DNA of 44,030 bases from an uncultured Candidatus Saccharibacteria bacterium (GCA_964433905.1 CAYSSM010000004.1:1-44030); one strand, 5' to 3'; positions 7,528 through 39,657 are shown, numbered from the stretch's first letter. A program made the numbers and translations. The notes: generated from the letters alone by a model not told the origin.

Positions 7528-8142
7528 TTATTCTATTTTATAACTCGATAAGATATTGTCAAAGACATGCGCCGAAAATTCATCGTTGTCTGAAAAAGCG
7601 ATTTCCATTTGCAAATTATAAAAAATACCGTTTTTTAAAGCCGAGACTTGATCAACAAAAGTTAAAATGCCTGTAATAGAATCAATGTATGTCCATTGTC
7701 TTTCCTTAGCGGGAACCCCTCCCAAGGTTGTATCCTCGGTCAGAATTTCTTTGGCACTTTCTGGATTTTTTGCCTCTTGAAATAAATTGTTTCTTACCCA
7801 ATCAAGATATTCGGAAAGATCTTGGGACAAAACATTGTTCGATCCATATACCCTAACTGTCATTTTGGGATCGCTTGTAGACAAAGTTACACCGTCGCCA
7901 TTCTGCGACTCCTGCGCGGAAAAAGTTGAAGGGTATTTGAGTGAAAAACCATAACGAGCGTTTGCGTAAGAAGATAATGTCCCAGTCTGGAGATTCGTCG
8001 TCGGCGAAGGCGATATTTGTGTTGTCCCGACTTTGTAGAAATAGTAGCATCCAAACCCAAAAAGCAATCCGCCGATAATTAAAATTCCAAAAACCACCGC
8101 CACAATAATCCAAATTGTTTTTGAGTTGTTTTCTTTAGCCAT
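7528..8142 (-). CDS. Membrane-anchored extracellular protein, PsbP/Mog1-like domain possible
   Basis: N-terminal TM helix, S/P/T linker, Y.N..YGFSLKYP and FDNILSSYK motifs. Confidence 0.7.
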   Translation of the reverse strand: MAKENNSKTIWIIVAVVFGILIIGGLLFGFGCYYFYKVGTTQISPSPTTNLQTGTLSSYANARYGFSLKYPSTFSAQESQNGDGVTLSTSDPKMTVRVYGSNNVLSQDLSEYLDWVRNNLFQEAKNPESAKEILTEDTTLGGVPAKERQWTYIDSITGILTFVDQVSALKNGIFYNLQMEIAFSDNDEFSAHVFDNILSSYKIE

Positions 8143-17586: not shown

Positions 17587-19485
17587 CTATTTGTTGGTAA
17601 AATACCAGTATAATACATCTTTGGCCACCGGCCCGGCCGAAGAATATCCTTCACCGCCAGCTTCAACCAAGACAATAACGACAATTTCCGGATTTGCCGT
17701 CGGAGCAAATGCGGCAATCCAACCGTGAGTTTTCCCTTCGCTTCCAAATTGCGCTGTTCCGGTTTTAGCGCCCACCGTCACCGGTAAATCTGCTAATGAT
17801 TTGGCCGATCCAATCGTTACCGCCTGACGCATGCCCTCGCGAACAACAGTAAGATTTTCGCCGCTAATAAAATCTTTTTTAATAACACTCTTTTGCGATT
17901 CGTAAACTACTTTGCCATCTTTATTGCTGATTTTTGCGACAATTTGCGGTTTTAAAAGTTCTCCACTGTTGGCAATCGCAGAATATGCCGTCGCCATTTG
18001 TAAAGGCGTAATTAAAAAGTCGCCCTGCCCAATTCCCAACTGATAAGTATTGCCCAAATACCAAATTTCCTTTTTATTTTTTTCTTTCCACGCCGGATCA
18101 GGCACTAAACCAGTGGCTTCGCCAGGCAGGTCAATTCCGGTCTTGCTGCCAAAACCAAATTTTACTAAATAGTCATTTAATCTCGCAATACCCAAACCGC
18201 TAATTTTATCCCAACCACCGGCAACGGCATAGAAAAAAACATTCGCACTGACTGCCAGAGCTTTACGGACATCAACCAAACCATGCACCTTCCAGTCTGG
18301 ATAAACATAATTGCCAACTCTAATTTCCCCCGTAGCATTAATTGTTGTATTTTCAGTGATTACTCCTTCTTGAAGGCCGGCCGCCGCCACAAACGGTTTG
18401 ACAATTGAACCGGAAGGATATGTCCCAGAAACAGGTCGATTAAATAACGGTGTCGAAGGATCACTAATTAATTTTTGAAATTCTTCAGATGTTGACTGGG
18501 AGAATAAGTTATTGTCAAAAGTAGGGTAACTTACCATTGCTAAAATTTGGCCATTTTGAGGATTAATTGCCACTGCCGATCCGCCTGGCGAATCATTGGC
18601 AATAACACTATTTTTTAAACTTTGCGCTAATATATATTCGAGATTGGCATCAATACTTAAAACCAGATTATTTCCCGGAAACGGCTCAGAAAGAGACAAC
18701 TGCCTTTGCTGTTGGCCTTTAGAATCAACTTCAACTTCTAAAATTCCCGGAATTCCTTTTAGATTTTTTTCATAGCTAAATTCCAGACCGTCTTTACCTA
18801 TTTCGTAAAAAGGTTTATATGTCGGATTTTCCTTTAAATCATTTTGGCTCATTTTTCCAACATAGCCAATAATTTGGCTAAAACCTTCTACGGAATTATA
18901 CTCGCGAATCGGTTTCTTACTAATAACAACGCCGGGCAAATTAATCGTTCTTACTTCTAAAATCATGGCCGTGTCGCGATCAATATTTTCTTTTAAGACT
19001 ATGGGATCGTAGGTCGAAAACCCTTTTTCAGTGACTCTTTGTTTGATTTCATCTTCGGAAATTTGAGAAGCTTGGGATAATTTTTGATAGACTGCCTCTT
19101 TCTTAGCACGGTCTTTGGGCAAATCCAACGGATAAACTTCCAAATTGAAAGAAGCTTTATTCTTTGCCAAAATCACTCCCTTCGAGTCATAAATCAGCCC
19201 GCGGGAAGCGGTAACTTCCCTGACTCTTACACGATTACCTTCAGCTAGCGTTCTGTTAAATGCCCCGTTAGCTATCTGTAATCTTAAAAGTTGGGTTAGT
19301 AAAATAGTAAAACTAATTGCGCAGATTAGATAGGGAACCCATAATGGTTTGGGCGGAGCTTTAAATATTTCCTCACCTTCCGCATCATTTTTGTAATGTT
19401 CGTATTCCAAAACTTCCGTGGTTATTTTACGGAATGATTTATCGCCTCCCAACGGTTTGTCGTCATAAAGATCAAAAATTGACAT
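17587..19485 (-). CDS. mrdA: Penicillin-binding protein 2
   Basis: ASRGLIYD, SIVK, SAN and KTG motifs; follows mreBCD. Confidence 0.95.
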   Translation of the reverse strand: MSIFDLYDDKPLGGDKSFRKITTEVLEYEHYKNDAEGEEIFKAPPKPLWVPYLICAISFTILLTQLLRLQIANGAFNRTLAEGNRVRVREVTASRGLIYDSKGVILAKNKASFNLEVYPLDLPKDRAKKEAVYQKLSQASQISEDEIKQRVTEKGFSTYDPIVLKENIDRDTAMILEVRTINLPGVVISKKPIREYNSVEGFSQIIGYVGKMSQNDLKENPTYKPFYEIGKDGLEFSYEKNLKGIPGILEVEVDSKGQQQRQLSLSEPFPGNNLVLSIDANLEYILAQSLKNSVIANDSPGGSAVAINPQNGQILAMVSYPTFDNNLFSQSTSEEFQKLISDPSTPLFNRPVSGTYPSGSIVKPFVAAAGLQEGVITENTTINATGEIRVGNYVYPDWKVHGLVDVRKALAVSANVFFYAVAGGWDKISGLGIARLNDYLVKFGFGSKTGIDLPGEATGLVPDPAWKEKNKKEIWYLGNTYQLGIGQGDFLITPLQMATAYSAIANSGELLKPQIVAKISNKDGKVVYESQKSVIKKDFISGENLTVVREGMRQAVTIGSAKSLADLPVTVGAKTGTAQFGSEGKTHGWIAAFAPTANPEIVVIVLVEAGGEGYSSAGPVAKDVLYWYFTNK

Positions 19486-19486
19486 A

Positions 19487-19963
19487 TTAAGCTATTTTAA
19501 TTTCTTCTTTTGGTTTAATAACATTTTGTAAAAATATATATATCAGACAACCCCAAACGCCCGAGATAAAAGCGGAAATCACTACCTGCCAAGACGGAAG
19601 CATTTTCAAAAATAGATGGATTCCTAAATCGTTAAATAAAACCGCGCTGGTGAAAATGAAAAAAGCGATAATAATTTTTGGCGTTGGAAGAATTTTCAGT
19701 AAATAAAAATTGATAAAAATAATTTCAATTAGAAATAAGATTGTATAAATGCCAAACTTCATTGTTGAACTAATGTCTAACATTAAGCCACCAATAGCAG
19801 CAATTAAAAAACCTTCTTGACTGCGTCCAAACAAAACAAAAGCAACCGCTAAAATAATAATAATATTGGGAATTGTATCAAAAAACATAATTTTATTAAA
19901 TAATGTTAATTGAAAAATACCTAAAGCGATAATGAACAAAATTTTAAGAATTGTTTTTGTCAT
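19487..19963 (-). CDS. mreD: Rod shape-determining protein MreD
   Basis: Polytopic, IPNIII, GGLMLDI; lies between mreC and mrdA. Confidence 0.85.
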   Translation of the reverse strand: MTKTILKILFIIALGIFQLTLFNKIMFFDTIPNIIIILAVAFVLFGRSQEGFLIAAIGGLMLDISSTMKFGIYTILFLIEIIFINFYLLKILPTPKIIIAFFIFTSAVLFNDLGIHLFLKMLPSWQVVISAFISGVWGCLIYIFLQNVIKPKEEIKIA

Positions 19964-27423: not shown

Positions 27424-28092
27424 ATGAGAAGGAAAGAACAATTAAATACCAATCAGATTTATCATATTTACATCAAAAGCATTTCCGATTATAGAATATT
27501 TAATAATTCTGAAGAATTTTGTAGAATGATGGATTTATTACTTTACTATCAGATTAGAAATGAGGTTAAATATTCAGATTTTATCCAGCAAAAACAAGTT
27601 GCAGAATATGGGTTTCGTAAGTTTATTGAGATCATTTCTAAAAATAAAGAAAAGATTGTGCAGATAATTGCTTATTGTCTTATGCCTACCCATATTCATT
27701 TAATTCTTAAACAATTAGAAGAAAAAGGAATTTCGTCTTATATGGGAAGTGTGCTAAACAGCTATACACATTACTTTAATGCAAAACATAGAAGAAAAGG
27801 TCCTTTATGGGAAAGCAAATTCAAAAATATCTTGGTGATTAACGATGAACAATTAATCCATTTGACTCGTTACCTTCATCTAAACCCTACTACTGCATTT
27901 TTGACCGATAAACCGGAACAATGGTCTTTTTCTTCTTATGGAGAATATTCGTCACTAACAAACGCAAATCCTAAACTTTGCCAATACAGTGATATTTTAG
28001 AGATCAATCCACTAGAGTACAAAAAATTTGTAAACGACAGGATAGCATACCAGAAAGAATTAGCTAAAATCAAAAATTTATTACTAGATTGA
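27424..28092 (+). mobile_element. REP-associated tyrosine transposase (RAYT; Y1 HUH, IS200/IS605 superfamily)
   Basis: YHIY, AYCLMPTHIHL (HUH), GPLWESKF, YLHLNP, WSFSSY; flanked by matching palindromes. Confidence 0.93.
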
Positions 28093-28095
28093 ACC

Positions 28096-29772
28096 TTATT
28101 CAACCCGCTCCTGGAGCGGGGTTAAGGTTGCTTTAACTCTACGCACCCCAGCTGACGAGGACTCTTCTTTTATAATTTTAAAATGGCCTAAAACACCGAT
28201 TTTTTCCACATGAGGACCGCCACAAATCTCTTTGGAAAAATCACCCATAAAATATACTTTTACCTTGAAACCATATTTTTGGCCAAATTCACCGACCGCA
28301 CCACAGTTTTTAGCATCTTCAAGGCTCATTTCTTCCATTTTAACTGGCAGGTCTTCTCGGATTTTCTGATTAACAATATCTTCAACTTGTTTTAGCTGCT
28401 CATCAGTTAGTTTATCAGGATAAGAAAAATCAAATCTTAACCGTTCAGCGGTAATATTCGAACCTTTTTGATGAATATCTTCACCTAATACTTTTTTTAG
28501 GGAAGCGAGGAGCAGATGAGTGGCGGTGTGATATTTTATTTCCTGCTCTCCCCCACCAGCTAACCCGCCCTTAAACATTCCGGCCGATGCAGTACGAGAA
28601 AGATCTTGATGAGACTTAAAGGCTTGCTCAAATTGAGACTTTTCTATTTCGATACCATTTTCTTCCGCCAATTCCTCTGTCATCTCCAAAGGAAACCCAT
28701 AACTTTGATGCAAATCAAAAGCAATTTTCCCATCCAAATCATTTTTTACTTTCTCGAACTCTTTTAACCCTAGCTCTAATGTATTTCTAAACTTTGATTC
28801 TTCTTTGGTTAGCTCTTCTTCGATTATTTCTGTTTTAAAATCGTAAACATCTTTGTAAGTATTAAAAACTTCCTTTGCCAAAACTGTCGTAAAATTTTCG
28901 TTTATCCCCAGTTTCTTAGCTTTAATTACCGCCCGGCGGATTAATCTGCGAACGATGTAGCCGGCATCTTTATTCGCCGGCAAAATCCCGTCATTAATGG
29001 CAAAAACTGCTGCTTTTATGTGATCTAAAATTATTCTTTCATTAATAGGATCTTCTATTTTGAGTAATTCATACAATTTTTTACAAGGAAGCCCGAATAA
29101 ATCAGTATGAAAAACATTTTCGACATTATTAATTTTTACCAACATTCTTTCCAAGCCCATTCCAGTATCAATGCCTTTTGTTTCCAATGGACTGAATGCG
29201 CCATCTTTAACATAATATTCATTAAAAACCAGAGTCCAAACCTCAACGTCATCAATATAGACTTCTACAGCTGGACCGCATGGGCCTTCATCGCCAGTCG
29301 GTCCCCAAAAACAATCTTCACGAGGAAATTCCTTATATTTTATCTGCATCGATTCTAAGATTTGAGCCGACTCGTCATCACGAGGATTTTTATCGTCTCC
29401 TTGAAATATCGAACACCATATTTTTTCCTTATCGATGTTAAGACCATCTAAGAACTCTATTACCATTTCAATCGCTTCTTTTTTAAAATACCCTCCAAAT
29501 GAAAAGTTACCGAGCATTTCAAAAAAAGTTAAGTGAGTATTGTCGCCAACCTCTTCAATATCGGAAGTTCTAATACAAGGTTGGCATGTTACGACATTTT
29601 TAGCAGGAGCGTTTTCAGAATTTGTATAATAAGGCTTAAATTGTTGCATGCCGGCAGTCGTAAACAAAACAGACGGATCGTTTTCAGGAATTAGACTAGC
29701 GGGAGGTAATTTTTTGTGATCTTTACTTTCAAAAAAATCTAAAAATTTTTGGCGCAATTGAAATGAGTTCAT
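28096..29772 (-). CDS. alaS: Alanine--tRNA ligase, short form lacking the C-Ala domain
   Basis: LFTTAGMQ, HLTFFEMLGNFSFG, DTGMGLER, HTATHLL, EICGGPHV. Confidence 0.97.
   Translation of the reverse strand: MNSFQLRQKFLDFFESKDHKKLPPASLIPENDPSVLFTTAGMQQFKPYYTNSENAPAKNVVTCQPCIRTSDIEEVGDNTHLTFFEMLGNFSFGGYFKKEAIEMVIEFLDGLNIDKEKIWCSIFQGDDKNPRDDESAQILESMQIKYKEFPREDCFWGPTGDEGPCGPAVEVYIDDVEVWTLVFNEYYVKDGAFSPLETKGIDTGMGLERMLVKINNVENVFHTDLFGLPCKKLYELLKIEDPINERIILDHIKAAVFAINDGILPANKDAGYIVRRLIRRAVIKAKKLGINENFTTVLAKEVFNTYKDVYDFKTEIIEEELTKEESKFRNTLELGLKEFEKVKNDLDGKIAFDLHQSYGFPLEMTEELAEENGIEIEKSQFEQAFKSHQDLSRTASAGMFKGGLAGGGEQEIKYHTATHLLLASLKKVLGEDIHQKGSNITAERLRFDFSYPDKLTDEQLKQVEDIVNQKIREDLPVKMEEMSLEDAKNCGAVGEFGQKYGFKVKVYFMGDFSKEICGGPHVEKIGVLGHFKIIKEESSSAGVRRVKATLTPLQERVE
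28104..28120. repeat. REP palindrome downstream of RAYT, within the last codons of alaS
   Basis: cccgctcctggagcggg inside a longer aacctt...aaggtt hairpin. Confidence 0.9.
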
Positions 29773-30389
29773 TGATTACCTAAAATTAATTTTTTAACAT
29801 AATCGGAAATATTTCTAAAACCAATCGTCGCCGGATTTCTTTTCTCGGAAGCAACTTGCGAATACCACGAACCATAAACCTTATTATACATTTCTTCAGC
29901 ACCCTTGACTTTCTGAATAAAAAAGACTGTCTCATAAGGAAGAGCTGCACCGCTATCCTTGTACTTGTCCGCCCGGCTGACACCGGCATTATAGGCCGCT
30001 AACACTAAATCGGTATTGTCGGAGTATTTATCCATTAGTCCCCGTAAATACCATGTGCCATATTTGATATTAGTGTCTGGGTCGCGCAAATTACCCGTAG
30101 GCTCACCAATTTCTGAAGCTATTGAATCGGCTGTCCTTGGCATAACTTGCATTAGTCCCACTGCTCCGGCGCCGGAAACAGAATCTTTATTAAACCTACT
30201 TTCAGTATAAATTACCGCGGCGACAAAATTAGGACGTAAATTTCGCTCTTCAGAGTATTTTTTTATTAAGTCTTTGTAATCAAGCGGATACAATATTTCT
30301 CCCCAAACATGAGGAAAAAAGAAATAAAAGATCGCCAAAAGTGCAACAGTGACAAAACTGACAATTATAAATTTTATCGTTCTTTTCAT
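29769..30389 (-). CDS. Lytic transglycosylase, SLT domain
   Basis: AVIYTESRF, GAVGLMQVMPRTA, LAAYNAG. Confidence 0.95.
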   Translation of the reverse strand: MKRTIKFIIVSFVTVALLAIFYFFFPHVWGEILYPLDYKDLIKKYSEERNLRPNFVAAVIYTESRFNKDSVSGAGAVGLMQVMPRTADSIASEIGEPTGNLRDPDTNIKYGTWYLRGLMDKYSDNTDLVLAAYNAGVSRADKYKDSGAALPYETVFFIQKVKGAEEMYNKVYGSWYSQVASEKRNPATIGFRNISDYVKKLILGNQ

Positions 30390-30433
30390 ACTCTTATACT
30401 AACAGTTAATAATTCTGCCGCCAAACTTATCTC

Positions 30434-30510
30434 TGATGCCCGAGATCGGACTCCCTCCTACATCCTTACTGATCTACTTTCAGTGCGGACTACGGCGGGA
30501 AAGCGGACTT
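30434..30510 (-). pseudogene. Degenerate tRNA 3' half with T-loop interrupted by palindromic element
   Basis: Minus strand gtccg[insert 30453-30503]agtccgatctcgggcatca; aligns with 35634-35704. Confidence 0.6.
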
Positions 30511-30529
30511 TCACTTTCTTATTCTGATG

Positions 30530-30614
30530 TGCCGCGGGTGGGATTCGAACCCACATGAGCGATGAAGCTCACAGCATTTTAAGTGCTGCGCGTAAACCGT
30601 TCCGCCACCGCGGC
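30530..30614 (-). tRNA. tRNA-Leu(TAA), CCA not encoded
   Basis: GCCGCGG/CCGCGGC acceptor, CAGCA-CT TAA AA-TGCTG, long variable arm, TTCGAAT. Confidence 0.95.
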
Positions 30615-30642
30615 AAAATATATTTTAATTATACCCTGAAAA

Positions 30643-31602
30643 CTACTTTAAAACAATCTCCCAATTTTTGCCATTGAGTTTTAAATCGGCCGAAACTGTA
30701 AAACCAGCGGCTTTCTTGTGGCCGCCGCCGCCGAAAAGCTTGGCAATTTTTGAAACATCAACATCATCTTTTTCGGTTCTGATGGAAGCGCGGATCTGGC
30801 CATCGGGAGTTTCGAAAAATAAAACCGCCGCTTTCGAATCGGGAATTGAATTCATCAGATTAACCACTCCTGTTAAATCGTAGTATGTCGCCTTACATGT
30901 CGCCAAATCCTTGAGCGTAATTACCGATGAGACAAAACCCAAATCTTGATTTTTATGTATTCTTGAAAGCGCAATCCCCCAGAGTTTGAGTGAAGCGATA
31001 CTTTTATTTAAAGATACATTGCGGGTAATTTCTTTAAGACGAGCGCCATAGTTAAGTAATTCCGAAGAAATTTTCAGCGTTTCGGGCGAAGTGTTCGAAT
31101 GCTTAAAACCACCAGTATCAGTATATATCCCAGTTAAAATCGCGGTGGCGATATCGCGCGTAATCGGAACATTCATTTCTTTAATTAGTTGCCAAACAAT
31201 TTCCGATACGGAGGAGGCTTTTTGATCAACAAGATTCAAATTAGCAATTTTCCACAAATCATTTTTAGGATGATGATCAATATTTATTAAATTACGATAA
31301 TTCTTGGCAAATTTTTTAAGTCTCTCGGGAAAACCGGTTCTTTTTAAATCACCGCAATCAATAATTACAATAACTTCAAAATCGCCGAAAAGAACATCCT
31401 TTTGAATTTTTGAGACCTCTTTTAAAAACAAAAAAGGTTGCGGAATAGAATCTTTGCACACCATTGAAGTCTCTTTCCCCAACTCTTTTAAAACCATAAA
31501 CATTGCTACCGTTGCCGCCAAAGTATCGCCGTCGGGATCTTCGTGGATCATTAATAAAATCTTTTGGTAATTTTTAATCTTTGAAATAACTTTATGAAAC
31601 AT
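30643..31602 (-). CDS. nrnA: DHH/DHHA1 phosphoesterase NrnA
   Basis: HEDPDGD, IDHH, TDTGGF, GGGGHKKAAG. Confidence 0.93.
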   Translation of the reverse strand: MFHKVISKIKNYQKILLMIHEDPDGDTLAATVAMFMVLKELGKETSMVCKDSIPQPFLFLKEVSKIQKDVLFGDFEVIVIIDCGDLKRTGFPERLKKFAKNYRNLINIDHHPKNDLWKIANLNLVDQKASSVSEIVWQLIKEMNVPITRDIATAILTGIYTDTGGFKHSNTSPETLKISSELLNYGARLKEITRNVSLNKSIASLKLWGIALSRIHKNQDLGFVSSVITLKDLATCKATYYDLTGVVNLMNSIPDSKAAVLFFETPDGQIRASIRTEKDDVDVSKIAKLFGGGGHKKAAGFTVSADLKLNGKNWEIVLK

Positions 31603-32065
31603 TGAGGACCATAACTTTTCTTTCTTCGTTGGGTAATTCAGTAAAAGAAAATTTATATTGATCCGCCCCTTCTTGTGAAACGCCTTCTTCGCGCAAAAAA
31701 CTGTCTAAATTTTCAGAATACATAGGGATGACCACGGCCGGATCAATTTGATTAATCACATCCATAGCCATTTTTGTTTCAGTAAACTCGCCCCCGCCGA
31801 CGCCGATTATTAAAACATTGATACCATTTAATTTTTCCAACTCTTCATTGGTCAGAATTTTCGCTTTTTTGATCCAAGCGATTGTCATCTTTTCAGATAA
31901 AATTTCCGTAATGCCGTCGATAACTTCAAGCTGAACCCCGCCTGATTCGTATTCACCAGGGTTGGAAATTTTCATCTCGCCTAAGCTTATTTCTTGACCA
32001 ATTTTGACTGTTTTGCTTTTAGTCTTGATGGTAAAATTTTCTTCGCCGTTGTAACTAATAATCAT
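31592..32065 (-). CDS. Degenerate MBL-fold protein
   Basis: PGEYESGGV, LIIGVGG, QIDPAVVIPM; metal-binding histidines absent. Confidence 0.7.
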   Translation of the reverse strand: MIISYNGEENFTIKTKSKTVKIGQEISLGEMKISNPGEYESGGVQLEVIDGITEILSEKMTIAWIKKAKILTNEELEKLNGINVLIIGVGGGEFTETKMAMDVINQIDPAVVIPMYSENLDSFLREEGVSQEGADQYKFSFTELPNEERKVMVLNVS

Positions 32066-33222
32066 TTTTTCACCTTTTTGGTTTTAGCTTTTGATGTAAT
32101 TTTGGATGTTGTTTTTGATTGGATCTTTTTATCGTCTTGTTTTACAAGATCCTTCATCGACAAACTTAACTTATGTAATTCCGGCTCGATCGAAATAATT
32201 CTGAATTTATACGATTTTCCTTCTTCGACTTTTTCTTTTGGATCGGAAACTTTTTCTCCTAACTCGGAAATATGAACTAAACCGTCTAAACTGCCAACTT
32301 TTACGAAAGCCCCAAAAGGAGTGATTTTGGTTATGCTACCGGGAATTTCATCACCAACCTTAAACCCTTCCGATTCTTTTAGCCATGGATCTGGCTGAAG
32401 TTTTTTTATTGATAAAGAAAGTCGATTATTGTCGGTGGAAATTACTTCAACATCAATCTTATGGCCAATTTTGAAAAGATTGTTTAAATCTTCAACATGG
32501 TCCCAAGAAACTTCAGAAATATGGATTAATCCTTCCATTTCTTCTTCAACATCAGGCAATATCACTTTAACAAAAAGACCAAAATTAACAATTCCTGTTA
32601 TTTCGCCCGTCAACTTTTGGCCGATTTTAATTTTTGTTAATTTCTCTTGCCAAATTAAATCACCCGCGGCTTTTTCGGAAAATATTAATTTTCCCGACCC
32701 GGGTTCAAAATTTAATATTTTAACTCGAAAATTCTGACCAACTAAACTGTGTAATTTTTTATATATTTCATCGCGATCGCCGGAATTAACTTTTGGATAA
32801 TGCGATGTGGTCAGTTGTGAAACAGGCAAAAAACCTTCAAAATCACCAAATTGGCAAATTAATCCACCTTTATTGGCAGAACTGGCTTTGACTTGCAAAA
32901 CATCACCGGTCTCAAATTTTGTCGCTAAGAGCTTGCTGATTCTTTCTTTATCGGCTCGGCGTAAAGACAAAATGACATAGCCATCGTCGTTTTCAACCGT
33001 CAAAACATAGGCCAAAATCTTGTCACCAACTTTTAGGTCACCCATGTCCGGTGAAAATTCTTGTTCGGGAATTATTCCTAAAGATAAACCGCCCACATCA
33101 ACTAAAATTTTATTTTTTAGACTTTGTAAAATTTTAACCTCAAATAGTTCGTTTTCTTTAATTGAGATTAAACGATTGCCGGCGGCAGCAACTAAATCCT
33201 GCATTGTTTGGGGTTTACTCAT
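32062..33222 (-). CDS. rpsA: 30S ribosomal protein S1 (four S1 domains)
   Basis: EGFLPVSQL, FGLFV..EGLIHISE, FGAFV..DGLVHISE, LSLSIK. Confidence 0.92.
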   Translation of the reverse strand: MSKPQTMQDLVAAAGNRLISIKENELFEVKILQSLKNKILVDVGGLSLGIIPEQEFSPDMGDLKVGDKILAYVLTVENDDGYVILSLRRADKERISKLLATKFETGDVLQVKASSANKGGLICQFGDFEGFLPVSQLTTSHYPKVNSGDRDEIYKKLHSLVGQNFRVKILNFEPGSGKLIFSEKAAGDLIWQEKLTKIKIGQKLTGEITGIVNFGLFVKVILPDVEEEMEGLIHISEVSWDHVEDLNNLFKIGHKIDVEVISTDNNRLSLSIKKLQPDPWLKESEGFKVGDEIPGSITKITPFGAFVKVGSLDGLVHISELGEKVSDPKEKVEEGKSYKFRIISIEPELHKLSLSMKDLVKQDDKKIQSKTTSKITSKAKTKKVKK

Positions 33223-33248
33223 TGATCACCTTTCTTATCCCTCCATTG

Positions 33249-33665
33249 TTATGGTAAATATTTGTTATAAATTTGTTCTTCGCGGAATTTATTAATTTTT
33301 TGAGGTAGAATTTTAAAATAAAAATAAAGTAAATAAATTGACCAGATGATAAAAACTAATATCAATATTAACAGAAATAAACGGCTACCTAAATATGGAA
33401 TTTGCTGAAAACGAAAGAAAATTAATACCAAACCTGAAATACCCGTATAGAAAAAAATATTGAAAAACCGTCCTTGTAAACTGCTCAAAACCGGCAGATT
33501 TTTCTTTTTCTTGCCGTAAATAAACCAAAAAACAATGGCTAAAACAATAAACAACCCGAAAACAATCGCAAGATAAAGATAATCTGAATTGGCTGACGGC
33601 GTTTTTTCAAAAATGTAAGAAGGCTCGAATAACTTTTTGGGATTAATATTTTTAAACAATTCCAT
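33249..33665 (-). CDS. Three-helix membrane protein, hypothetical
   Basis: Hydrophobic helices, FFRFQQIPYLGSR, C-terminal KYLP. Confidence 0.75.
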   Translation of the reverse strand: MELFKNINPKKLFEPSYIFEKTPSANSDYLYLAIVFGLFIVLAIVFWFIYGKKKKNLPVLSSLQGRFFNIFFYTGISGLVLIFFRFQQIPYLGSRLFLLILILVFIIWSIYLLYFYFKILPQKINKFREEQIYNKYLP

Positions 33666-33735
33666 AGCGATGTCTCATATTGATATCTGAAACAATGGAC
33701 AGACTCTCAATACCACTATATGCATGCCAACAAAT

Positions 33736-33905
33736 TGCCGGGTCGCAGAATCGGACTGCGTACACGTTGACATGCGTGCCGACTTTTGCCTATGCCTGGG
33801 GCGAGGATCGAACTCGCGACACCATGATTTTCAGTCATGTGCTCTACCACTGAGCTACCCAGGCAAAAGTCACAGTCAACTGCTCTACCAATGAGCTAAC
33901 CCGGC
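33736..33905 (-). pseudogene. tRNA-like shell whose anticodon loop contains an intact tRNA-Phe
   Basis: GCCGGGT TA GCTC ATTGGTA GAGC A GTTGA [insert] TCAAC GTGTA CGCAG TCCGATT CTGCG ACCCGGC A; all four stems pair. Confidence 0.8.
33793..33864 (-). tRNA. tRNA-Phe(GAA), CCA not encoded
   Basis: GCCTGGG/CCCAGGC, CATGA-CT GAA AA-TCATG, GCGAG TTCGATC CTCGC. Confidence 0.95.
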
Positions 33906-33915
33906 AATTTGTTGG

Positions 33916-34060
33916 CAGCCATGTGCGATATTTATCCGCCAAAATCCGCACTGTAAGCAGAGGATACAATCCTCGTTCGAGTCTGAGCCTGAAGGCTCAT
34001 CCCTCAGAGTCGAAGACCTTTTACAGTAAGGATGTCGGCGGACCACTGAGCTACCCAGGC
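33916..34060 (-). pseudogene. 5' half of a second tRNA-Phe copy with D-loop interrupted by a composite palindromic element (33935-34042)
   Basis: GCCTGGGTAGCTCAGTGGT (34060-34042) identical to the tRNA-Phe 5' end; resumes as GCACATGGCTG (33926-33916) versus GCACATGACTG. Confidence 0.7.
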
Positions 34061-34197
34061 AAATATAGTTACAAGTTAAAAGTTACAAAAGAAAAAACAA
34101 TTTTCTTTGTATCTTGCATCGTATAACATATAACTTGTAATTAGGAGGCTGATATTTAAATCTATTTTATAATAGCAGAAAAATAATTTTATATCAA

Positions 34198-34272
34198 TGG
34201 TGGCCGCTGCAGGATTCGAACCTGCGACTTTCTCGATGTAAACGAGACACTCTACCGCTGAGTTAAGCGGCC
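34198..34272 (-). tRNA. tRNA-Val(TAC)
   Basis: GGCCGCT/AGCGGCC ACCA, TCTCG-TT TAC AT-CGAGA. Confidence 0.97.
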
Positions 34273-34277
34273 ATAAT

Positions 34278-34856
34278 TTATTTATTTTCTATTGTTATTT
34301 TTTCAATTTTATCACCGACGGCAATTTTTTTAACCACATCCATTCCTGAAATTACCTGACCAAAAAGACTATATTGTTTTGGAAGAGTAGGTTGATCGTC
34401 TAAACAAATGAAAAACTGCGAACCATTAGTATTGGGACCGGAATTAGCCATCGCAACCGTCCCCGCTTTGTATTCACCTTCAACTTTTTCATCGTCAAAT
34501 TCATATCCCGGACCGCCGGTGCCATCGCCTTTTGGATCTCCCCCCTGAATAACAAACCCTGGCACAACCCGATGGAAAGTTAACCCATCGTAAAAACCTT
34601 TTTGAGCCAAGTAAATAAAGTTGCTGACAGTTATCGGCGCCTTATTGGCAAATAGCTCAAATTCGATTGTGCCTTTACCAGTTTTAACCACCGCTTTTTT
34701 GTTTTGAATCATTTCGCCCGATAAAAGTCCCGGGAATTCATAAGTCATATTACTCTCCTTTAGATTTACAGAATCCGATTTATTTTTATTACTAAAACCA
34801 TAATAAATAATTACCCCAACGATTAAAAGTATAATTATTATGCCAATATTTTTCAT
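34278..34856 (-). CDS. Cyclophilin-type peptidyl-prolyl isomerase, membrane anchored
   Basis: FYDGLTFHRVVPGFVIQGGDP, AMANSGPNTNGSQFFI. Confidence 0.96.
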   Translation of the reverse strand: MKNIGIIIILLIVGVIIYYGFSNKNKSDSVNLKESNMTYEFPGLLSGEMIQNKKAVVKTGKGTIEFELFANKAPITVSNFIYLAQKGFYDGLTFHRVVPGFVIQGGDPKGDGTGGPGYEFDDEKVEGEYKAGTVAMANSGPNTNGSQFFICLDDQPTLPKQYSLFGQVISGMDVVKKIAVGDKIEKITIENK

Positions 34857-34878
34857 AAGTATAAATCCATGGTTGACA

Positions 34879-34964
34879 CCCTGTGGTCTTTGCCACAGTT
34901 CAATATTTTATCAATAAAATGTTTTCATCTTTTATTTTAACGCCCTGCGGTCTCTGCCGCAGGG
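34879..34964. repeat. Pair of related palindromes in direct orientation
   Basis: ccctgtggtctttgccacag and ccctgcggtctctgccgcaggg. Confidence 0.7.
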
Positions 34965-34995
34965 GGATTTACAAGTAATTGTAGGATGTTAAACG

Positions 34996-35082
34996 TGGTG
35001 CCCAGGACAGGACTTGAACCTGCACGGGCTTGCGCCCATAGCCACCTCAAGGCTACGCGTATACCGATTCCGCCACCTGGGC
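34996..35082 (-). tRNA. tRNA-Leu(GAG)
   Basis: GCCCAGG/CCTGGGC ACCA, TAGCC-TT GAG GT-GGCTA, long variable arm. Confidence 0.96.
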
Positions 35083-35236
35083 ATCTATTATGATTATACC
35101 TTAAAAAAGTGTTTTTTTCAACTTAAAAATGCTCTATTCTCAAGACAAGAACCTGCTTCGCAGAACTTGTTTCTCAATTTACTTAAAATAGTTCGAAGAT
35201 GCCTGACTAACAGACAGGCAAAATGTGACTGGTAGT

Positions 35237-35578
35237 TTATACGCCTGTCATTCTAAGCTTTTTTTCCAAAACTAAAACTCTCTTCTCTAGCTTCTCGTAT
35301 TCTTCATAGTCAACTTTTCTTTTAAGCATTCCCTTGATCATCTCAATGTTTTCCGTATTAAGAGCCGTCATTTCCATAATCGCATCTAATTTTTTAAATA
35401 TCTCATTAAACTTTTTTGTATGATCAACTTGCACTTCAACGATAATTTTTAAACGACTGTCAAACTCCTCCAAAAGCATTTTCTGATGTCGTTGCATCTC
35501 TACCGTTTGTGTAGTCAAGTTCTCATTAATATGCTTGGTTTGGTCATCTAATAATTTTTTGAACGTTTTATCTTCCAT
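35237..35578 (-). CDS. Hypothetical coiled-coil protein
   Basis: 113 aa, GGAG RBS, KRKVDYEEYEKLEKRVLVLE heptads. Confidence 0.75.
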   Translation of the reverse strand: MEDKTFKKLLDDQTKHINENLTTQTVEMQRHQKMLLEEFDSRLKIIVEVQVDHTKKFNEIFKKLDAIMEMTALNTENIEMIKGMLKRKVDYEEYEKLEKRVLVLEKKLRMTGV

Positions 35579-35633
35579 ATTGGTCTCCTGATTTTAACAA
35601 TATTCTATTTAGAAAATGATGTCAATTTCCAAC

Positions 35634-35828
35634 TGGTGCCCGGGAGAGGACTCCCTCCTGCGTCCTCTGCTTGCAGTGCGGACTTCGGTAGGGCAAGCGA
35701 ACCCATACTTGCAGATTCGTATATGCCAGTGGTGGGATTCGAACCCACAATCCTTGCGGAACACGGCTCTGAACCGTGCGCGTATGCCAATTCCGCCACG
35801 CTGGCATGCATTATTCCAGCACCCGGGC
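35634..35828 (-). pseudogene. Degenerate tRNA-Leu-like shell enclosing intact tRNA-Leu(CAG)
   Basis: 5' GCCCGGGTGCTGGAAT (35828-35813); 3' GGGTTCG[insert]AGTCCTCTCCCGGGCACCA; perfect 7-bp acceptor stem. Confidence 0.8.
35724..35805 (-). tRNA. tRNA-Leu(CAG), CCA not encoded
   Basis: GCCAGCG/CACTGGC (one mismatch), CACGG-TT CAG AG-CCGTG, GTGGG TTCGAAT CCCAC. Confidence 0.93.
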
Positions 35829-35833
35829 AGATT

Positions 35834-37198
35834 TTATTTTTTTATTCTTTTAGTATGAATATACCACAAAGCGACATTCAAAAATCGGTCTCCTTCGGTT
35901 GCTGCAACAATTTTTTCGATACCATAAACTTTATTAGATACCAAATAAAAATAATCTTGATGCTCAACAACATAAGCCGGTATTTCCTGATCAATAATTT
36001 GCTGAAATTCAGCGTATTTTTCTTCGCGTTTTTTAAAATCAAATTCCTGGCGGGCATCTTCCATTAATTTATCGGCTTTAATATTTTTAAAATTTGATAA
36101 ATTACGACCGTCTTCTTTGATTTGTGAGGAATGCCAAAACGGATAAGGATCAGGATCTTCACCGTAATCAAGTCCGTATAGCAATAAATCATAGTCCCGT
36201 TTTGGAATGGTAGTTTTTTGCAAAGTAACATTATCCTTAACATCTAAAGTAACCTTTACGCCGGCTTTCCCCCATTTGTCAACAACCGCTTTAGCCAGCT
36301 CAACATTTTTGGCATTATCAGAAGTAACCAATCTCAAATCCAATTCTTTATTCGGTGAAGAATTCTCTTTTAATGCTCGGCGAATATTAATGTCCTGCAA
36401 GCTTTTATTGGAAAGATTAAAAAATAAATATAAATCTCTTGGCAAATGAACTTCAAATTTATTATAATCTTTCATGTCCTGATTATTTTGGATGCCCAGT
36501 CCGTAAATATCCTTCCTTCTTGCCGCTTTTAATAAATCGTCCTGGCTATTAAACAATTTGACAACTACTTTATTAATGTAGGGTTTACCCGCATAATAAT
36601 CGTCACGAGCCGTTAATTCGACTTCGTCTTTCGTTTCTTTAGAAATTCGATATGGCCCGTAGTCAAAGATTGGTTCAGTCGAAGCATAGAGAAAAGGACT
36701 AAACGGTTGTTTGAAGGAAAATGTAATTGTACTCGAATCGGGAGTTGAGATCTCAATATCTTTCCAAATATTTTTTGATAGAATTTGACTGGCCAAATCC
36801 TCTGAACTAAAATTATCCCTTAGTTTGAATTCGTATAATTTACCGTTATTTTTTATCTCCCAACTTTGAGCCATATCGGCAACAATGTTTTTTTGATTAT
36901 CGTATTTGGTTAAACCGGCATAAATTAACCGCGGCAAGTGCTTATCAAGATCTTTGCTTTCACCAACAATTCCTTCAACAAATTCACCTCCGGTAGCTGG
37001 CACTTGCCTGGTACCAGAAAGCCAATTACGATAGCCCAAGAAAACAAAGGATATCGCTACTGTTGCAAAAAGGCCCAATAATATTATTTTTTCTATCCTT
37101 GAAAAAACTCGAGGCAAGTGTTTGAAACTATAAAGTGTATCCCGCCAAGGATATTTTTTTATCGAATTGAGAATTTTTTTAGATTTGATAAATTTCAT
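35834..37198 (-). CDS. ABC substrate-binding protein family 5 (OppA-like), membrane anchored
   Basis: PATGGEFVEGIVG, IYAGLTK..ADMAQSW, DPDPYPFWHSSQ, NLSNF; next to secG. Confidence 0.88.
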   Translation of the reverse strand: MKFIKSKKILNSIKKYPWRDTLYSFKHLPRVFSRIEKIILLGLFATVAISFVFLGYRNWLSGTRQVPATGGEFVEGIVGESKDLDKHLPRLIYAGLTKYDNQKNIVADMAQSWEIKNNGKLYEFKLRDNFSSEDLASQILSKNIWKDIEISTPDSSTITFSFKQPFSPFLYASTEPIFDYGPYRISKETKDEVELTARDDYYAGKPYINKVVVKLFNSQDDLLKAARRKDIYGLGIQNNQDMKDYNKFEVHLPRDLYLFFNLSNKSLQDINIRRALKENSSPNKELDLRLVTSDNAKNVELAKAVVDKWGKAGVKVTLDVKDNVTLQKTTIPKRDYDLLLYGLDYGEDPDPYPFWHSSQIKEDGRNLSNFKNIKADKLMEDARQEFDFKKREEKYAEFQQIIDQEIPAYVVEHQDYFYLVSNKVYGIEKIVAATEGDRFLNVALWYIHTKRIKK

Positions 37199-37232
37199 AT
37201 AAGATATTCTCCTATAATAAATGAGGACTTTA

Positions 37233-37448
37233 TTAGATCAGAAAATTAATTATTACCAAGCCAACAAAAATTAGAGCCATAGCTATGGTAAAATAAAATA
37301 AAAATTTTTCCGCTCCGCGGCGAGTTCTGTAAACAGCTCCCTCGCCACCGAATGCTCCACCCAAAGAAGTACCGCGATGCTGAAGAAGGATGGCTAACAT
37401 TAAGATAACAGATACAACAATTTGAACGATCAATAAAATTTGGTTCAT
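37233..37448 (-). CDS. secG: Preprotein translocase subunit SecG
   Basis: ILLQHRGTSLGGAFGG..RTRRGAEKFL. Confidence 0.95.
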   Translation of the reverse strand: MNQILLIVQIVVSVILMLAILLQHRGTSLGGAFGGEGAVYRTRRGAEKFLFYFTIAMALIFVGLVIINFLI

Positions 37449-37540
37449 TACTTTAATATTATAAGATATTTACCAAAAATTGTAAAGGTGGTATAATTAT
37501 ATCTGTGAGAAGTTAACGCTGAGAAGTAAAGCGACGAAGC

Positions 37541-37615
37541 GCGAGAGTAGTTCATCGGTAGAACGTCTCCTTGCCAAGGAGAAGGTAGCGGGTTCAATTC
37601 CCGTCTCTCGCTCCA
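37541..37615 (+). tRNA. tRNA-Gly(GCC)
   Basis: GCGAGAG/CTCTCGC TCCA, TCTCC-TT GCC AA-GGAGA. Confidence 0.97.
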
Positions 37616-37664
37616 CATCGCTATCGTTCGGTGTAAACTAAGCTTGCATTGAACGAAGCAAAAT

Positions 37665-37738
37665 GGCCTGATGTCCGAGTGGCTAGGAAGCGGTCTGCAA
37701 AACCGCGCACGCCGGTTCAATTCCGGCTCAGGCCTCCA
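37665..37738 (+). tRNA. tRNA-Cys(GCA)
   Basis: GGCCTGA/TCAGGCC TCCA, GCGGT-CT GCA AA-ACCGC. Confidence 0.97.
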
Positions 37739-37810
37739 TCTCGCTACGCTCGGCGTAAACTTGATTCATAAAAAACATTAGTTTATACTGAAACGACTGA
37801 AAGGAGTAAA

Positions 37811-38152
37811 GTGAGTAAAAAAGGTAAATCAAAATTCCATCGCCAAATAAGAGCTCGGATTCTCCAAGAAATGGTTAAAACTCAAGCTCAATCAGTATCA
37901 ACAACTGAAATATCACCTGCAGCTAAACCGATATTGCCACCTCAAAAAACCGAGTTCACACCCGCTCCAGGAGCGGGATTACAGGTTGGTTTTGGTACTT
38001 TGCAACTAGTCCGCGCTGATTTAAAAAAATCAGCCATTATTATCGGCTCAATTATATTAGTCATCATTGCGTTAGCGATTATTGATACTAAAACAGGCAT
38101 TCTTTTAAAAGCAGGCAATAGTATTTTTAAAACACTCAATATTGGAGTCTAA
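37811..38152 (+). CDS. Small membrane protein, hypothetical, carrying an in-frame REP copy
   Basis: AAGGAG RBS, basic N-terminus, VRADLKK plus TM helix; cccgctccaggagcggg at 37961-37977. Confidence 0.75.
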   Translation: MSKKGKSKFHRQIRARILQEMVKTQAQSVSTTEISPAAKPILPPQKTEFTPAPGAGLQVGFGTLQLVRADLKKSAIIIGSIILVIIALAIIDTKTGILLKAGNSIFKTLNIGV

Positions 38153-39657
38153 TAAATAGATTGATCTTTTGGCCGATATTGCAAGGCCTCGGCCAAATGA
38201 GAAGTTTTGATATTATTACTTCCCTCCATGTCAGCAATTGTCCGCGCCAATTTTAATGTTCTAACATATTGGCGGGCTGACAAATTTAAACTGTTTACCG
38301 CCGAACGCAGAAGCTCTTTTGAAGGAATATCAATAGCACAATGTTTTTTTATTTCCGCCGGCTTTAATTCAGAATTGGTTTTTTTCGATCTTTTTTGCTG
38401 AATTGCTCGGGCTTTTTCAACCCGGCTTCGAATTACGCTTGATTCTTCAGCCACTTTTTCGTCAGATAATTTTTCAAATTTAACTCTCGGCACTTCGATA
38501 TGAATGTCAATTCTGTCAAGTAGCGGTCCCGAGACTCTTTTTTTATAACGAAGGATTTGCGTCGGCGTACAGATGCATGATTTTTGCGTATCACCTAAAT
38601 AGCCGCAGGGACAAGGATTTTGAGCAGCAACTAAAATAAATTTCGCCGGATATAAAACAGATCCCTGCGCTCTCGAAACCGTAATCACACCATCTTCCAA
38701 AGGCTGGCGCAAGGCCTCTAAAACTGATCTTGGAAATTCAGCAAATTCATCCATAAACAAAACTCCGCGATGAGCCAAGGTTATCTCGCCGGGCTTGGGA
38801 AAAGTACCGCCGCCAACCAACGCCACAGAGGAAGTTGTATGGTGAGGCGCCCTAAAAGGCCGGGTATTGATAATTGGCTGATCGGCTGGAAGTATGCCAG
38901 CGACCGAATATATTTTTGTTACTTCAATTGCCTCCTCTTCGTAAAGCTGAGGTAAAATTGACGGGATTGTCCGCGCCAAAAGAGTTTTGCCTGATCCGGG
39001 CGGTCCCATCATTAAAACATTATGTCCACCGGCGGCGGAAATTTCTAAAGCCCGTTTTGCTTGCTCTTGACCTTTAGCATAAGCCATATCAAAATCGTAT
39101 GTTTTTGGTAAAGTAATCTTAAATTTCTTGAAATAAACCGATAAATTTTTTTCATTCTTAAAATGGTAAATTAAACTTTTTAAATTTTCCGCCGGATAAA
39201 TTTTCATACCCTTAACGATAGCCGCCTCGTCTTTATTAATATCAGGAAGGATAATTGATAAATATTTATTTTTTAAATTAACGGCAATTGGTAAAATACC
39301 ATTTATATGGCGCAGATTTCCATTTAAAGCCAGCTCCCCGACTAATAAAGTTTTACTGTCAATTTCCGGCAGCTGGTCGTCGGCGATTAAAATCCCTAAA
39401 GCGATGGCTAAATCATATGACGGTCCTTCTTTTTTAATATCGGCTGGAGCTAAATTAACCGTAATCCGTTTCATTGGAAAATTGGCGCCAGAGTTTTTAA
39501 TCGCCGAACGGACGCGTTCTTTGGATTCTTCAATCGCCTTATCCGGCAACCCTACGATTGTAAACGAAGGAAGCCCGGCAGAAATGTCGGCTTCAACTTC
39601 AACCGGAAAAGCTTCCAGACCTAAGACTGCGGCTGAATTTACTTTAGCGAGTGGCAT
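38149..39657 (-). CDS. comM: YifB/ComM Mg-chelatase-like AAA+ ATPase
   Basis: [56 protein letters not shown]. Confidence 0.96.

Follow-up and report, generated by a model that had tools for sequence, protein, structure and literature searches.

The minus strand of the window (the whole stretch of DNA analysed here, 44,030 nucleotides from an uncultured Candidatus Saccharibacteria bacterium, GCA_964433905.1 CAYSSM010000004.1:1-44030) carries a complete tRNA-Leu(CAG) gene enclosed by two fragments of tRNA-Leu sequence. Read from 35828 to 35634, the pieces follow one another as a 5′ relic, 7 nt, tRNA-Leu(CAG), 18 nt, a T-arm-like piece of 8 nt, a 45-nt hairpin and a 3′ relic; every component of the nested layout described in the first-pass annotation is present on this strand. 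The features of this locus, together with two related structures in the window, are as follows.

35831-35859, minus strand: promoter-like site within the end of SBP_bac_5, matching the consensus at 9/12 positions, weak
35813-35828, minus strand: 5′ relic, 16 nt, tRNA-Leu-like start, assigned to the type A resident
35806-35812, minus strand: junction spacer, 7 nt, with a palindromic hexamer as its core
35724-35805, minus strand: inner tRNA-Leu(CAG), type C, called by ARAGORN and by Rfam RF00005
35706-35723, minus strand: spacer 3′ of the inner tRNA, 18 nt
35698-35705, minus strand: piece resembling the 5′ half of a T-arm, 8 nt
35653-35697, minus strand: truncated copy of the hairpin repeat R1 (covariance model), apex deleted, in the T-loop of the relic
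35634-35652, minus strand: 3′ relic, 19 nt, comprising the 3′ half of the T-loop, the 3′ strands of the T-stem and acceptor stem, A73 and CCA
33700-34061, minus strand: Phe locus, a layered nest of a 5′ tRNA-Phe fragment, a second, split tRNA and a live tRNA-Phe
30425-30528, minus strand: sister structure of a spacer, an R1 copy (32.2 bits) and a decayed tRNA-Leu 3′ relic

The inner gene was the only tRNA called by ARAGORN and Rfam in 35828-35634 (RF00005, 49.5 bits, E 1.8e-8; gathering score 29), and it is the sole Leu(CAG) gene among the 44 tRNA genes that ARAGORN found in this 751-kb, 47-contig genome (G000). It encodes no CCA and has a single C:A mismatch, at acceptor pair 6:67. The 5′ relic corresponds to nucleotides 1-16 of a tRNA, which are the 5′ strand of the acceptor stem, positions 8-9, the 5′ strand of the D-stem and the start of the D-loop. 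Its outer 7 nt are complementary to those of the 3′ relic at 7/7 positions, and A73 and CCA are encoded behind them, so the perfect 7-bp outer acceptor stem around a CCA-less inner tRNA, noted at first pass, can be read directly from the DNA. Simple arithmetic (30 × 120 × 4^-11, for an upstream 7-mer at ~30 positions and its complement plus ACCA within ~120 nt) puts the chance of such a pairing at ~0.001. The shell lacks the whole region that lies between nucleotide 16 and the T-loop, including the anticodon arm. The first-pass annotation had placed the inner gene within a D-loop; this describes the metagenome locus L221, where a near-whole outer gene has its D-loop split, but not the present locus, from which position 16 to the T-loop is gone.

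The 8-nt T-arm-like piece does not pair with the T-stem strand of the 3′ relic, and the 18-nt spacer is ~70% like the spacer that follows tRNA-Leu(TAA) at 30503-30528 when the two are aligned. Palindromic hexamers similar to the core of the 7-nt spacer were seen by eye at junctions of the Phe locus of the window and of the Gly and Met loci of a complete genome of the same family (G004). The neighbouring ORFs encode SBP_bac_5 (oppA-like), a cyclophilin and one product without a Pfam family; the 113-aa ORF behind the nest (35237-35578) matched no Pfam family.

Comparison with related genomes clarified the identity of the outer pieces. The gene order SBP_bac_5 to tRNA-Leu(CAG) is kept in eight genomes of the same family, and an intact tRNA-Leu(CAG) of the type that we call A occupies the same place in four of the eight family relatives (G001, G002, G004 and G005), which is the uninterrupted tRNA-Leu downstream of the oppA-like gene that had been proposed as a check. 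Type A is also intact at this place in the metagenome loci L211/L212, L216, L217 and L233. The 5′ relic starts ~12 nt past the SBP_bac_5 stop, where type A starts in G001 and G005, and 15 of its 16 positions agree with the intact type A genes of G001, G002 and G004. It is likewise 15/16 identical to Leu(TAA) of G007 and G008; the assignment to Leu(CAG) rests on position and one D-stem base, and on these grounds we read the 5′ piece as the start of the resident type A Leu(CAG) gene.

The 3′ relic is identical at 20/20 positions to tRNA-Leu ends in seven genomes of the class. Over positions 58-73 it agrees at 15/16 positions with the Leu(GAG) genes of G001 and G006 and with Leu(TAG) of G000, and at 14/16 with type A Leu(CAG); it is best described as a true tRNA-Leu end that is not assignable to one isoacceptor. 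Its origin from the gene that left the 5′ piece is not certain. Behind tRNA-Leu(GAG) of G005 lies a homologous block (82% over 81 nt), in which the same 8-nt T-arm-like piece precedes a truncated R1 copy and a tRNA-Leu tail, followed by an ortholog of the 113-aa ORF. The type A Leu(CAG) gene of G005 is intact, and therefore the tail may predate the break at the 5′ side. Both pieces thus bear out the derivation of the shell from tRNA-Leu (15/16 to intact tRNA-Leu(CAG) genes of relatives for the 5′ piece, 15/16 to tRNA-Leu ends for the 3′ piece), and host and guest share their isotype as the first-pass annotation had suggested, in that a tRNA-Leu relic surrounds a live tRNA-Leu(CAG). The outer pieces are a relic, and neither a working nor a spliced tRNA.

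The inner gene is of a different type, C, and is 92% identical to Leu(CAG) of G033, which belongs to another family. Type C also occupies the site in G007, type B in G008 and G003, and a fourth type in G006; three species of a single genus have three Leu(CAG) types there (G001 A, G007 C and G008 B). The flanking protein gene has only ~70% DNA identity within the family. Relics at the Leu(CAG) site were found in 2/9 family genomes and in 3/14 metagenome loci, the latter being, of 80 loci retrieved with the SBP protein, the top 12 matches and two partial ones; a complete Leu(CAG) is present in 12 of these 14. The most elaborate case is G003, with three layers: a type C relic preserved at both ends encloses a type A 5′ relic, which is broken at the same D-loop position as in G000 and in turn surrounds the live type B gene. 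In L221, a live type B gene, preceded by 24 nt and followed by 6 nt, splits the D-loop of a near-whole type A gene, and removal of the insert gave an 83-84-nt class II tRNA in 9/3721 trial excisions. L222 has a 5′ relic and then a live gene, and L233 a 5′ relic ahead of Leu(GAG).

Relics are not confined to this site. The sister structure directly follows tRNA-Leu(TAA) (30529-30614) and has no 5′ partner piece; the orthologous relic of G004 is better preserved and agrees with the type of Leu(TAA) found intact in G002, G003, G007 and G008. At the Phe locus, R1 sits in the D-loop of the 5′ tRNA-Phe fragment (33931-34046, 48.5 bits), the second tRNA is split after position 34, and the live tRNA-Phe occupies 33792-33865; trial excision of the middle tRNA mostly reads His(GTG) (53/200 matches). 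A self-similarity test (blastn-short, same strand, within 350 nt of a tRNA, E up to 0.001) detected flanking tRNA pieces at 5/44 tRNAs of G000 (Ile-TAT, Phe, Lys-TTT, Glu-TTC and Gln-CTG), to which three loci with differing host and guest, Leu-CAG, Leu-TAA and Thr-GGT, were added by eye. Relics thus occur at at least 8 of the 44 tRNA loci of this genome, and the picture is similar in two further complete genomes. The same test returned 9/46 tRNAs in G004 (8 without a cross-match of neighbouring Ser genes) and 16/47 in G035, a genome of another family that lacks R1 (14 after removal of a Leu/Leu cross-match). The relics at this site in other genomes and metagenome loci, together with those at other tRNA loci, agree with the recurrent process, rather than a one-off accident, that the first-pass annotation had postulated.

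Clean nests have a common architecture. A complete tRNA lies inside the anticodon loop of a gene with the same anticodon that is broken after position 34 or 35, and the inner tRNA is clamped by an inverted repeat of 9-15 nt that extends its acceptor stem; this was seen for Ile-TAT and Phe in G000, Asp and a Met in G004, and Ile-GAT and Ile-TAT in G035. Across the nests, the acceptor stems of host and guest often differ. As a separate observation, a perfect palindrome of 20 nt lies in the D-loop of a Met relic of G004; it has four exact copies in G004, one with two mismatches in G000 and none in G035.

Small nuclease genes lie close to tRNA genes in several of the genomes. Open frames of 84-163 aa with a GIY-YIG domain number 13 in G000, G004 and G003, and 11 of them lie within 350 nt of a tRNA gene; by our own arithmetic, tRNA genes with 350-nt flanks make up ~4-5% of these genomes. 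One such ORF is inside the Lys(TTT) nest of G000 and another inside a Met nest of G004, a third lies 67 nt behind the Asp nest of G004, and in G000 two are located behind a tRNA gene interrupted by a group I intron. LAGLIDADG ORFs precede tRNA-Leu(TAG) in G000 and overlap the end of tRNA-Leu(TAA) in G001. Nuclease genes are also found at the Leu(CAG) site elsewhere: in L219, a 78-aa GIY-YIG ORF (54.8 bits) lies between a broken tRNA-Leu and the start of a further tRNA-Leu, and L213 has a LAGLIDADG ORF (LAGLIDADG_3, 37.3 bits) directly behind the gene, the remaining 456 nt of its contig containing no tRNA. There is no nuclease gene at the Leu(CAG) locus of G000, its neighbours being housekeeping genes or genes without a Pfam match, and a tblastn search for GIY-YIG remnants with 10 proteins against 29500-38000 and nine orthologous loci gave a best E of 0.098.

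These comparisons make it likely that the stretch records the in-place replacement of a tRNA gene, probably spread by homing nucleases. The replacement itself is well supported, and the nuclease engine is the most likely of several. We infer the following order of events. A type A tRNA-Leu(CAG) would have resided directly behind the SBP_bac_5 gene until a short incoming DNA with a complete type C tRNA-Leu(CAG) broke it at the D-loop, leaving as dead flanks its first 16 nt and a tRNA-Leu tail from T-loop to CCA. The 3′ half of the D-arm, the anticodon arm and the variable arm of the old gene would have been lost, and the T-loop came to hold a truncated R1 copy. A cassette that brings a substitute tRNA could disrupt an essential tRNA gene present in one copy and still leave the cell viable. 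Such cassettes would most likely be spread by free-standing small GIY-YIG or LAGLIDADG homing endonucleases that recognize tRNA genes, with the nuclease gene lost afterwards, as proposed for the Leu(CAG) locus. A point against this engine is that classical homing by gene conversion predicts clean replacement and not nests.

The inner gene is probably transcribed from the old promoter, with the 5′ relic as pre-tRNA leader. Four promoter-like sites occur in 35500-36000, against 1.3 ± 1.2 in shuffled sequences, and the one listed above ends 3 nt ahead of the 5′ relic. The inner tRNA would then be cut out by the usual end-processing enzymes and receive its CCA from the CCA-adding enzyme, a gene for which is present in the genome (130 bits). 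More generally, and tentatively, the CPR may harbor self-rescuing homing cassettes, each composed of a complete tRNA, often with an inverted-repeat clamp and a tiny nuclease, that invade the resident, essential single-copy gene for the same tRNA, assume its function and so make themselves indispensable. Allele turnover would then outpace species divergence, insertions would build up Russian-doll nests, and the nuclease would decay; the Leu(CAG) locus could represent a late, nuclease-free stage.

An alternative without a dedicated nuclease, which we regard as possible although unlikely, is that foreign tRNA-Leu DNA was joined illegitimately or through short homology at conserved blocks of the tRNA gene after DNA uptake, or that hairpins of the R1 type, moved by single-strand HUH/Y1 transposases with a preference for the loops of folded tRNA DNA, disrupt tRNA genes and either bring the replacement along or set it off. 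The second variant involves the repeat to which the 45-nt insert belongs. The "palindromic insert" of the first-pass annotation is indeed a 45-nt hairpin, now corrected to a truncated copy of a dispersed repeat, R1: the R1 covariance model matches 35649-35696 (21.3 bits, E 0.0165), and the insert is homologous to copies at 30449-30503 and at G000:C27:1482-1552. Full-length R1 is a rod-like hairpin of ~70 nt with 23 pairs and strongly conserved internal loops, and compensatory double changes occur at 11/23 pairs among eight full-length seed copies from six genomes. The insert therefore belongs to a dispersed, multi-copy imperfect palindrome with compensatory changes, a trait in which it resembles REP/REPIN-type repeats. 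The copy described here is without the apex, its sister behind tRNA-Leu(TAA) has a different deletion, and the G004 ortholog of the latter is full-length and lies in the T-loop of a Leu(TAA)-type relic.

The covariance model detected nine R1 copies in G000 and found R1 in 48/151 genomes sampled from the class, including 8/8 family members, with up to 19 copies per genome. No Rfam family matches it, and R1 is in our view a well-supported new structured repeat. Six of the nine copies in G000 touch tRNA genes or relics: they occupy the T-loops of the Leu(CAG) and Leu(TAA) relics and the D-loop of the tRNA-Phe fragment, flank tRNA-Glu on both sides, and adjoin a T-arm fragment on C17. When the best copy of each of 30 genomes was considered, five lay within 60 nt of an intact tRNA. 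The stretch between two R1 copies of G004 (~902.6-903.4 kb) gave no Rfam match and no clear ORF.

Several observations favor an explanation of this kind. R1 is found in the T-loop of Leu relics in G000 (twice), G004, G005 and G148, and its positions in the Phe fragment and on both sides of tRNA-Glu point the same way. The arms that clamp the inner tRNA of the G004 Asp nest resemble the R1 basal stem, the breakpoints of nests fall in loops (the D-loop, anticodon-loop positions 34/35 and the T-loop), and G000 encodes eight Y1_Tnp genes. G035 has no small GIY-YIG ORF and no LAGLIDADG_3 match, yet the most flanking tRNA pieces; the two nuclease families are therefore not the only engine. The same genome speaks against R1, however, as it has many nests and no R1 match, and R1 as the cause of nesting was rejected. 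The nests of G003 and L221 at the Leu(CAG) site also have no R1 inside. Transposition is disfavored by the clamping inverted repeats, which differ from nest to nest and hence are not transposase-recognized ends. The Y1_Tnp gene on C27, the one inspected, is flanked by another repeat family, and R1 was rejected as its repeat; an R1 copy beside a Y1_Tnp gene was not seen.

Integration scars of the attL/attR type, in which an integrase element enters a tRNA gene, duplicates part of it and is later deleted to a few nucleotides, are an improbable source of the locus. Integration is the textbook origin of tRNA gene fragments, as stated in PMC9897764, and inserts of ~160 nt behind three tRNAs of G004 (Glu, Lys and Ser), each with a perfect 23-nt duplication from T-loop to CCA, as well as tandem 3′ fragments after tRNA-Phe and tRNA-Lys of G035, would fit such an origin. 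At the Leu(CAG) locus, however, the relics are not copies of the live inner gene (12/16 for the 5′ piece and 10/16 for the 3′ piece) and lie only 7 nt and 71 nt from it, with no integrase among the neighbouring ORFs. The inner gene is whole, its own 5′ and 3′ ends included, and the 5′ piece sits at the orthologous start of the resident gene.

A function of the outer pieces in a working RNA, either through intron-like joining of the two halves or as an acceptor-helix signal for processing, is very improbable. The perfect 7-bp helix with A73 and CCA is closed in the predicted fold of the whole stretch (-79.7 kcal/mol, z -2.16), and the relic 5′ ends at Ile(TAT) have been retained in both G000 and G004, which belong to different genera, as a working role would allow. 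Against this, the shell has no anticodon arm and its T-stem halves are unpaired, 0/3441 trial excisions gave a tRNA across the joint, and the Leu(TAA) sister relic has no 5′ partner. Rfam searches at E up to 1 returned no second tRNA match for the outer shell, and only tRNAs and chance matches in 30000-38500 and at nine loci with hairpin copies. No match to the group I intron RF00028 was obtained in 30000-38500 at the same threshold; RF00028 does match elsewhere in G000, in another tRNA gene (C2:18757-19014, 68.8 bits). The tRNA splicing endonuclease (PF01974) and the ligase RtcB (PF01139) gave no match in G000, which is an estimated 90.7% complete, and the corresponding controls were positive in 4 and 10 of 14 named genomes, respectively; archaeal-type splicing of the outer pieces was rejected on this basis.

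Two samples of one study, possibly the study from which the window itself comes, yielded Logan contigs over 35300-35785/35797 and 35768/35770-36100 that differ from it at 0-1 positions. A single contig spans each junction in both samples at equal depth (~7-8), and the DNA is therefore real. Contigs from a second and a third study cover the stretch in part; one from the second matches 35549-35709, comprising the 3′ relic and hairpin, with 0 differences. Among the 20 runs found, no RNA run was listed. An assembly chimera or chance resemblance is accordingly hardly credible, even though the genome was assembled from a metagenome and the Logan contigs end within the tRNA, given the junction-spanning contigs, the same layout in independent genomes and the low chance expectation calculated above.

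Genes for tRNAs are usually treated as static, vertically inherited markers. In-place replacement of the kind described here has occurred repeatedly, even within a genus, and in organisms with one copy of each tRNA gene, so that phylogenies of these lineages cannot safely rely on tRNA alleles. If a cassette of nuclease and substitute gene is indeed responsible, it would be a new route for selfish DNA into essential RNA genes without splicing, and a counterpart of the known insertions in rRNA genes of the CPR. There is also a practical consequence for annotation: tRNA finders miss or miscall the relics, and island finders based on tRNA genes will misread them as integration scars.

Among known systems, REP/REPIN elements are hairpin repeats moved by RAYT transposases. 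Like them, R1 is an imperfect palindrome present in many intergenic copies, its stems covarying and its unpaired bases conserved, in a genome with Y1_Tnp genes; it differs in that no Y1_Tnp gene was seen flanked by R1. To our knowledge, REPINs have not been described inside the loops of tRNA relics. In word searches of the literature, we found no account of a bacterial tRNA gene nested in a tRNA gene; comparable cases may be listed in the supplementary tables of PMC9897764 and PMC11270868.

The disrupted tRNA genes of archaea and algae, with multiple introns or in split and permuted form, share interruptions in the D-loop and T-loop with the present locus, and mobile origins have been proposed for them (PMC4033280, PMC4090602 and PMC3978253). 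In those genes a protein endonuclease and a ligase splice the pieces into one tRNA, whereas these enzymes were not found here and the outer pieces give no tRNA. Partial tRNA genes at attL/attR sites are similar in that mobile DNA targets a tRNA gene and leaves one live copy together with partial ones; their breakpoints, as here, fall in the anticodon loop or T-loop (PMC9897764, citing Williams 2002). Unlike those sites, the nests have no island or integrase and span distances of a few to tens of nucleotides, and the guest is complete and of another type, with up to three layers.

The closest precedent for the proposed engine is SegB of phage T4, a free-standing GIY-YIG homing endonuclease encoded, as here, among tRNA genes. 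SegB is reported (PMC2330249) to recognize the T-arm motif conserved in tRNA genes and to drive inheritance of the tRNA region, such that its own gene and neighbouring tRNAs are inherited non-reciprocally and the tRNA-region markers of the rival are lost. SegB acts between co-infecting phages and results in clean gene conversion, whereas the nests lie in a bacterial chromosome and leave the old gene as flanks. Also unlike SegB, the nucleases described here are tiny (78-125 aa) and putative, and none is present at the Leu(CAG) locus. The insertions in rRNA genes of the CPR come from the same radiation and likewise place LAGLIDADG and GIY-YIG genes in essential structural RNA genes; many of the short inserts are not introns, and they sit at the tops or bases of stem-loops (PMC11270868, the main text of which does not contain the word tRNA). 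Inserts in rRNA are removed from the transcript or tolerated (PMC11270868), whereas the nests in tRNA genes stay in place and are compensated by a substitute gene.

A live tRNA gene lying within the broken remains of an older one, here called a nest, recurs in the window, elsewhere in its genome (G000) and in G004, a complete genome of the same family, where the following loci are relevant:

Window 33700-34061, minus strand: layered Phe locus
G000 contig C6:8540-9120, minus strand: Lys(TTT) nest
G004 C1:380640-381201: Asp nest
Window 30425-30528, minus strand: decayed tRNA-Leu tail behind tRNA-Leu(TAA), with a copy of the hairpin repeat R1 in its T-loop

The Phe locus is layered. It holds a 19-20 nt copy of the tRNA-Phe start, whose D-loop is occupied by an enlarged R1 copy, followed by a second tRNA that is split after position 34 and has a perfect inverted repeat of 17 bp as its clamp. 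This second tRNA encloses the live tRNA-Phe, which is flanked by a further inverted repeat of 10 bp. In the Asp nest, the break in the outer tRNA-Asp falls precisely between positions 34 and 35 of the anticodon, leaving both halves of the loop intact, and the T-arm of this outer tRNA holds a full R1 copy; the arms that clamp the inner tRNA-Asp resemble the basal stem of R1, and a GIY-YIG ORF (a putative homing nuclease) follows 67 nt downstream of the nest. At the Lys(TTT) nest a 15-nt inverted repeat forms the clamp around the live tRNA, and the broken tRNA-Lys contains a 94-aa GIY-YIG ORF, whose end reads through the 3' relic, and a 7-nt duplication at the T-arm; this old copy is riddled with small palindromic repeats of another family. 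The arrangement behind tRNA-Leu(TAA) is found again in G004 (C1, about 426100-426241), where it is less decayed than in the window and where the relic is of the Leu(TAA) type still intact in four other genomes of the family.

R1 itself is a ~70-nt hairpin repeat whose stems covary and whose internal loops are strongly conserved. It has no family in Rfam and is present in 48 of 151 genomes sampled from the class, at 1-19 copies per genome. Two further occurrences lie outside the loci listed:

G000 C27:1482-1552: R1 copy, with the first ~39 nt of a minus-strand ORF present on either side of it
G004 C1:902591-903386: GC-rich stretch bracketed by two R1 copies ~650 nt apart, with no Rfam match and no clear ORF

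Small ORFs of homing nuclease type also lie near other tRNA genes of G000:

C2:18733-19805: stretch that holds a tRNA gene missed by ARAGORN and interrupted by a group I intron (18757-19014; 68.8 bits in Rfam), together with the two ORFs of the next line
C2:19087-19299 and 19584-19805: two small GIY-YIG ORFs, 3' of that gene
C25:7187-7588: LAGLIDADG_3 ORF in a 232-aa frame, ~250 nt upstream of tRNA-Leu(TAG) (7835-7920)

The 751-kb genome G000 additionally carries eight Y1_Tnp (RAYT-like) transposase genes, one of which lies inside the window:

Window 27541-27879: Y1_Tnp gene

The repeats on either side of the C27 Y1_Tnp gene form a family of their own, distinct from R1.

G004 contains four exact copies of a perfect 20-nt palindrome (C1:480842-480861 and three more), of which one falls within the D-loop of a tRNA-Met relic; in G000 there is a single copy with two mismatches, and in G035, a genome of another family, there is none. 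By eye, similar palindromic hexamers lie directly at the nest junctions of the window (35806-35812, beside the inner tRNA-Leu(CAG), and the Phe locus) and at those of the Gly and Met loci of G004.

G004 also contains three related inserts, each of ~160 nt:

C1:369194-369450, 370509-370769 and 749378-749653: inserts behind tRNA-Glu, -Lys and -Ser

Every insert has at its flanks the T-loop-to-CCA end of its own tRNA, perfectly duplicated over 23 nt, and all three are terminated by the same small hairpin.
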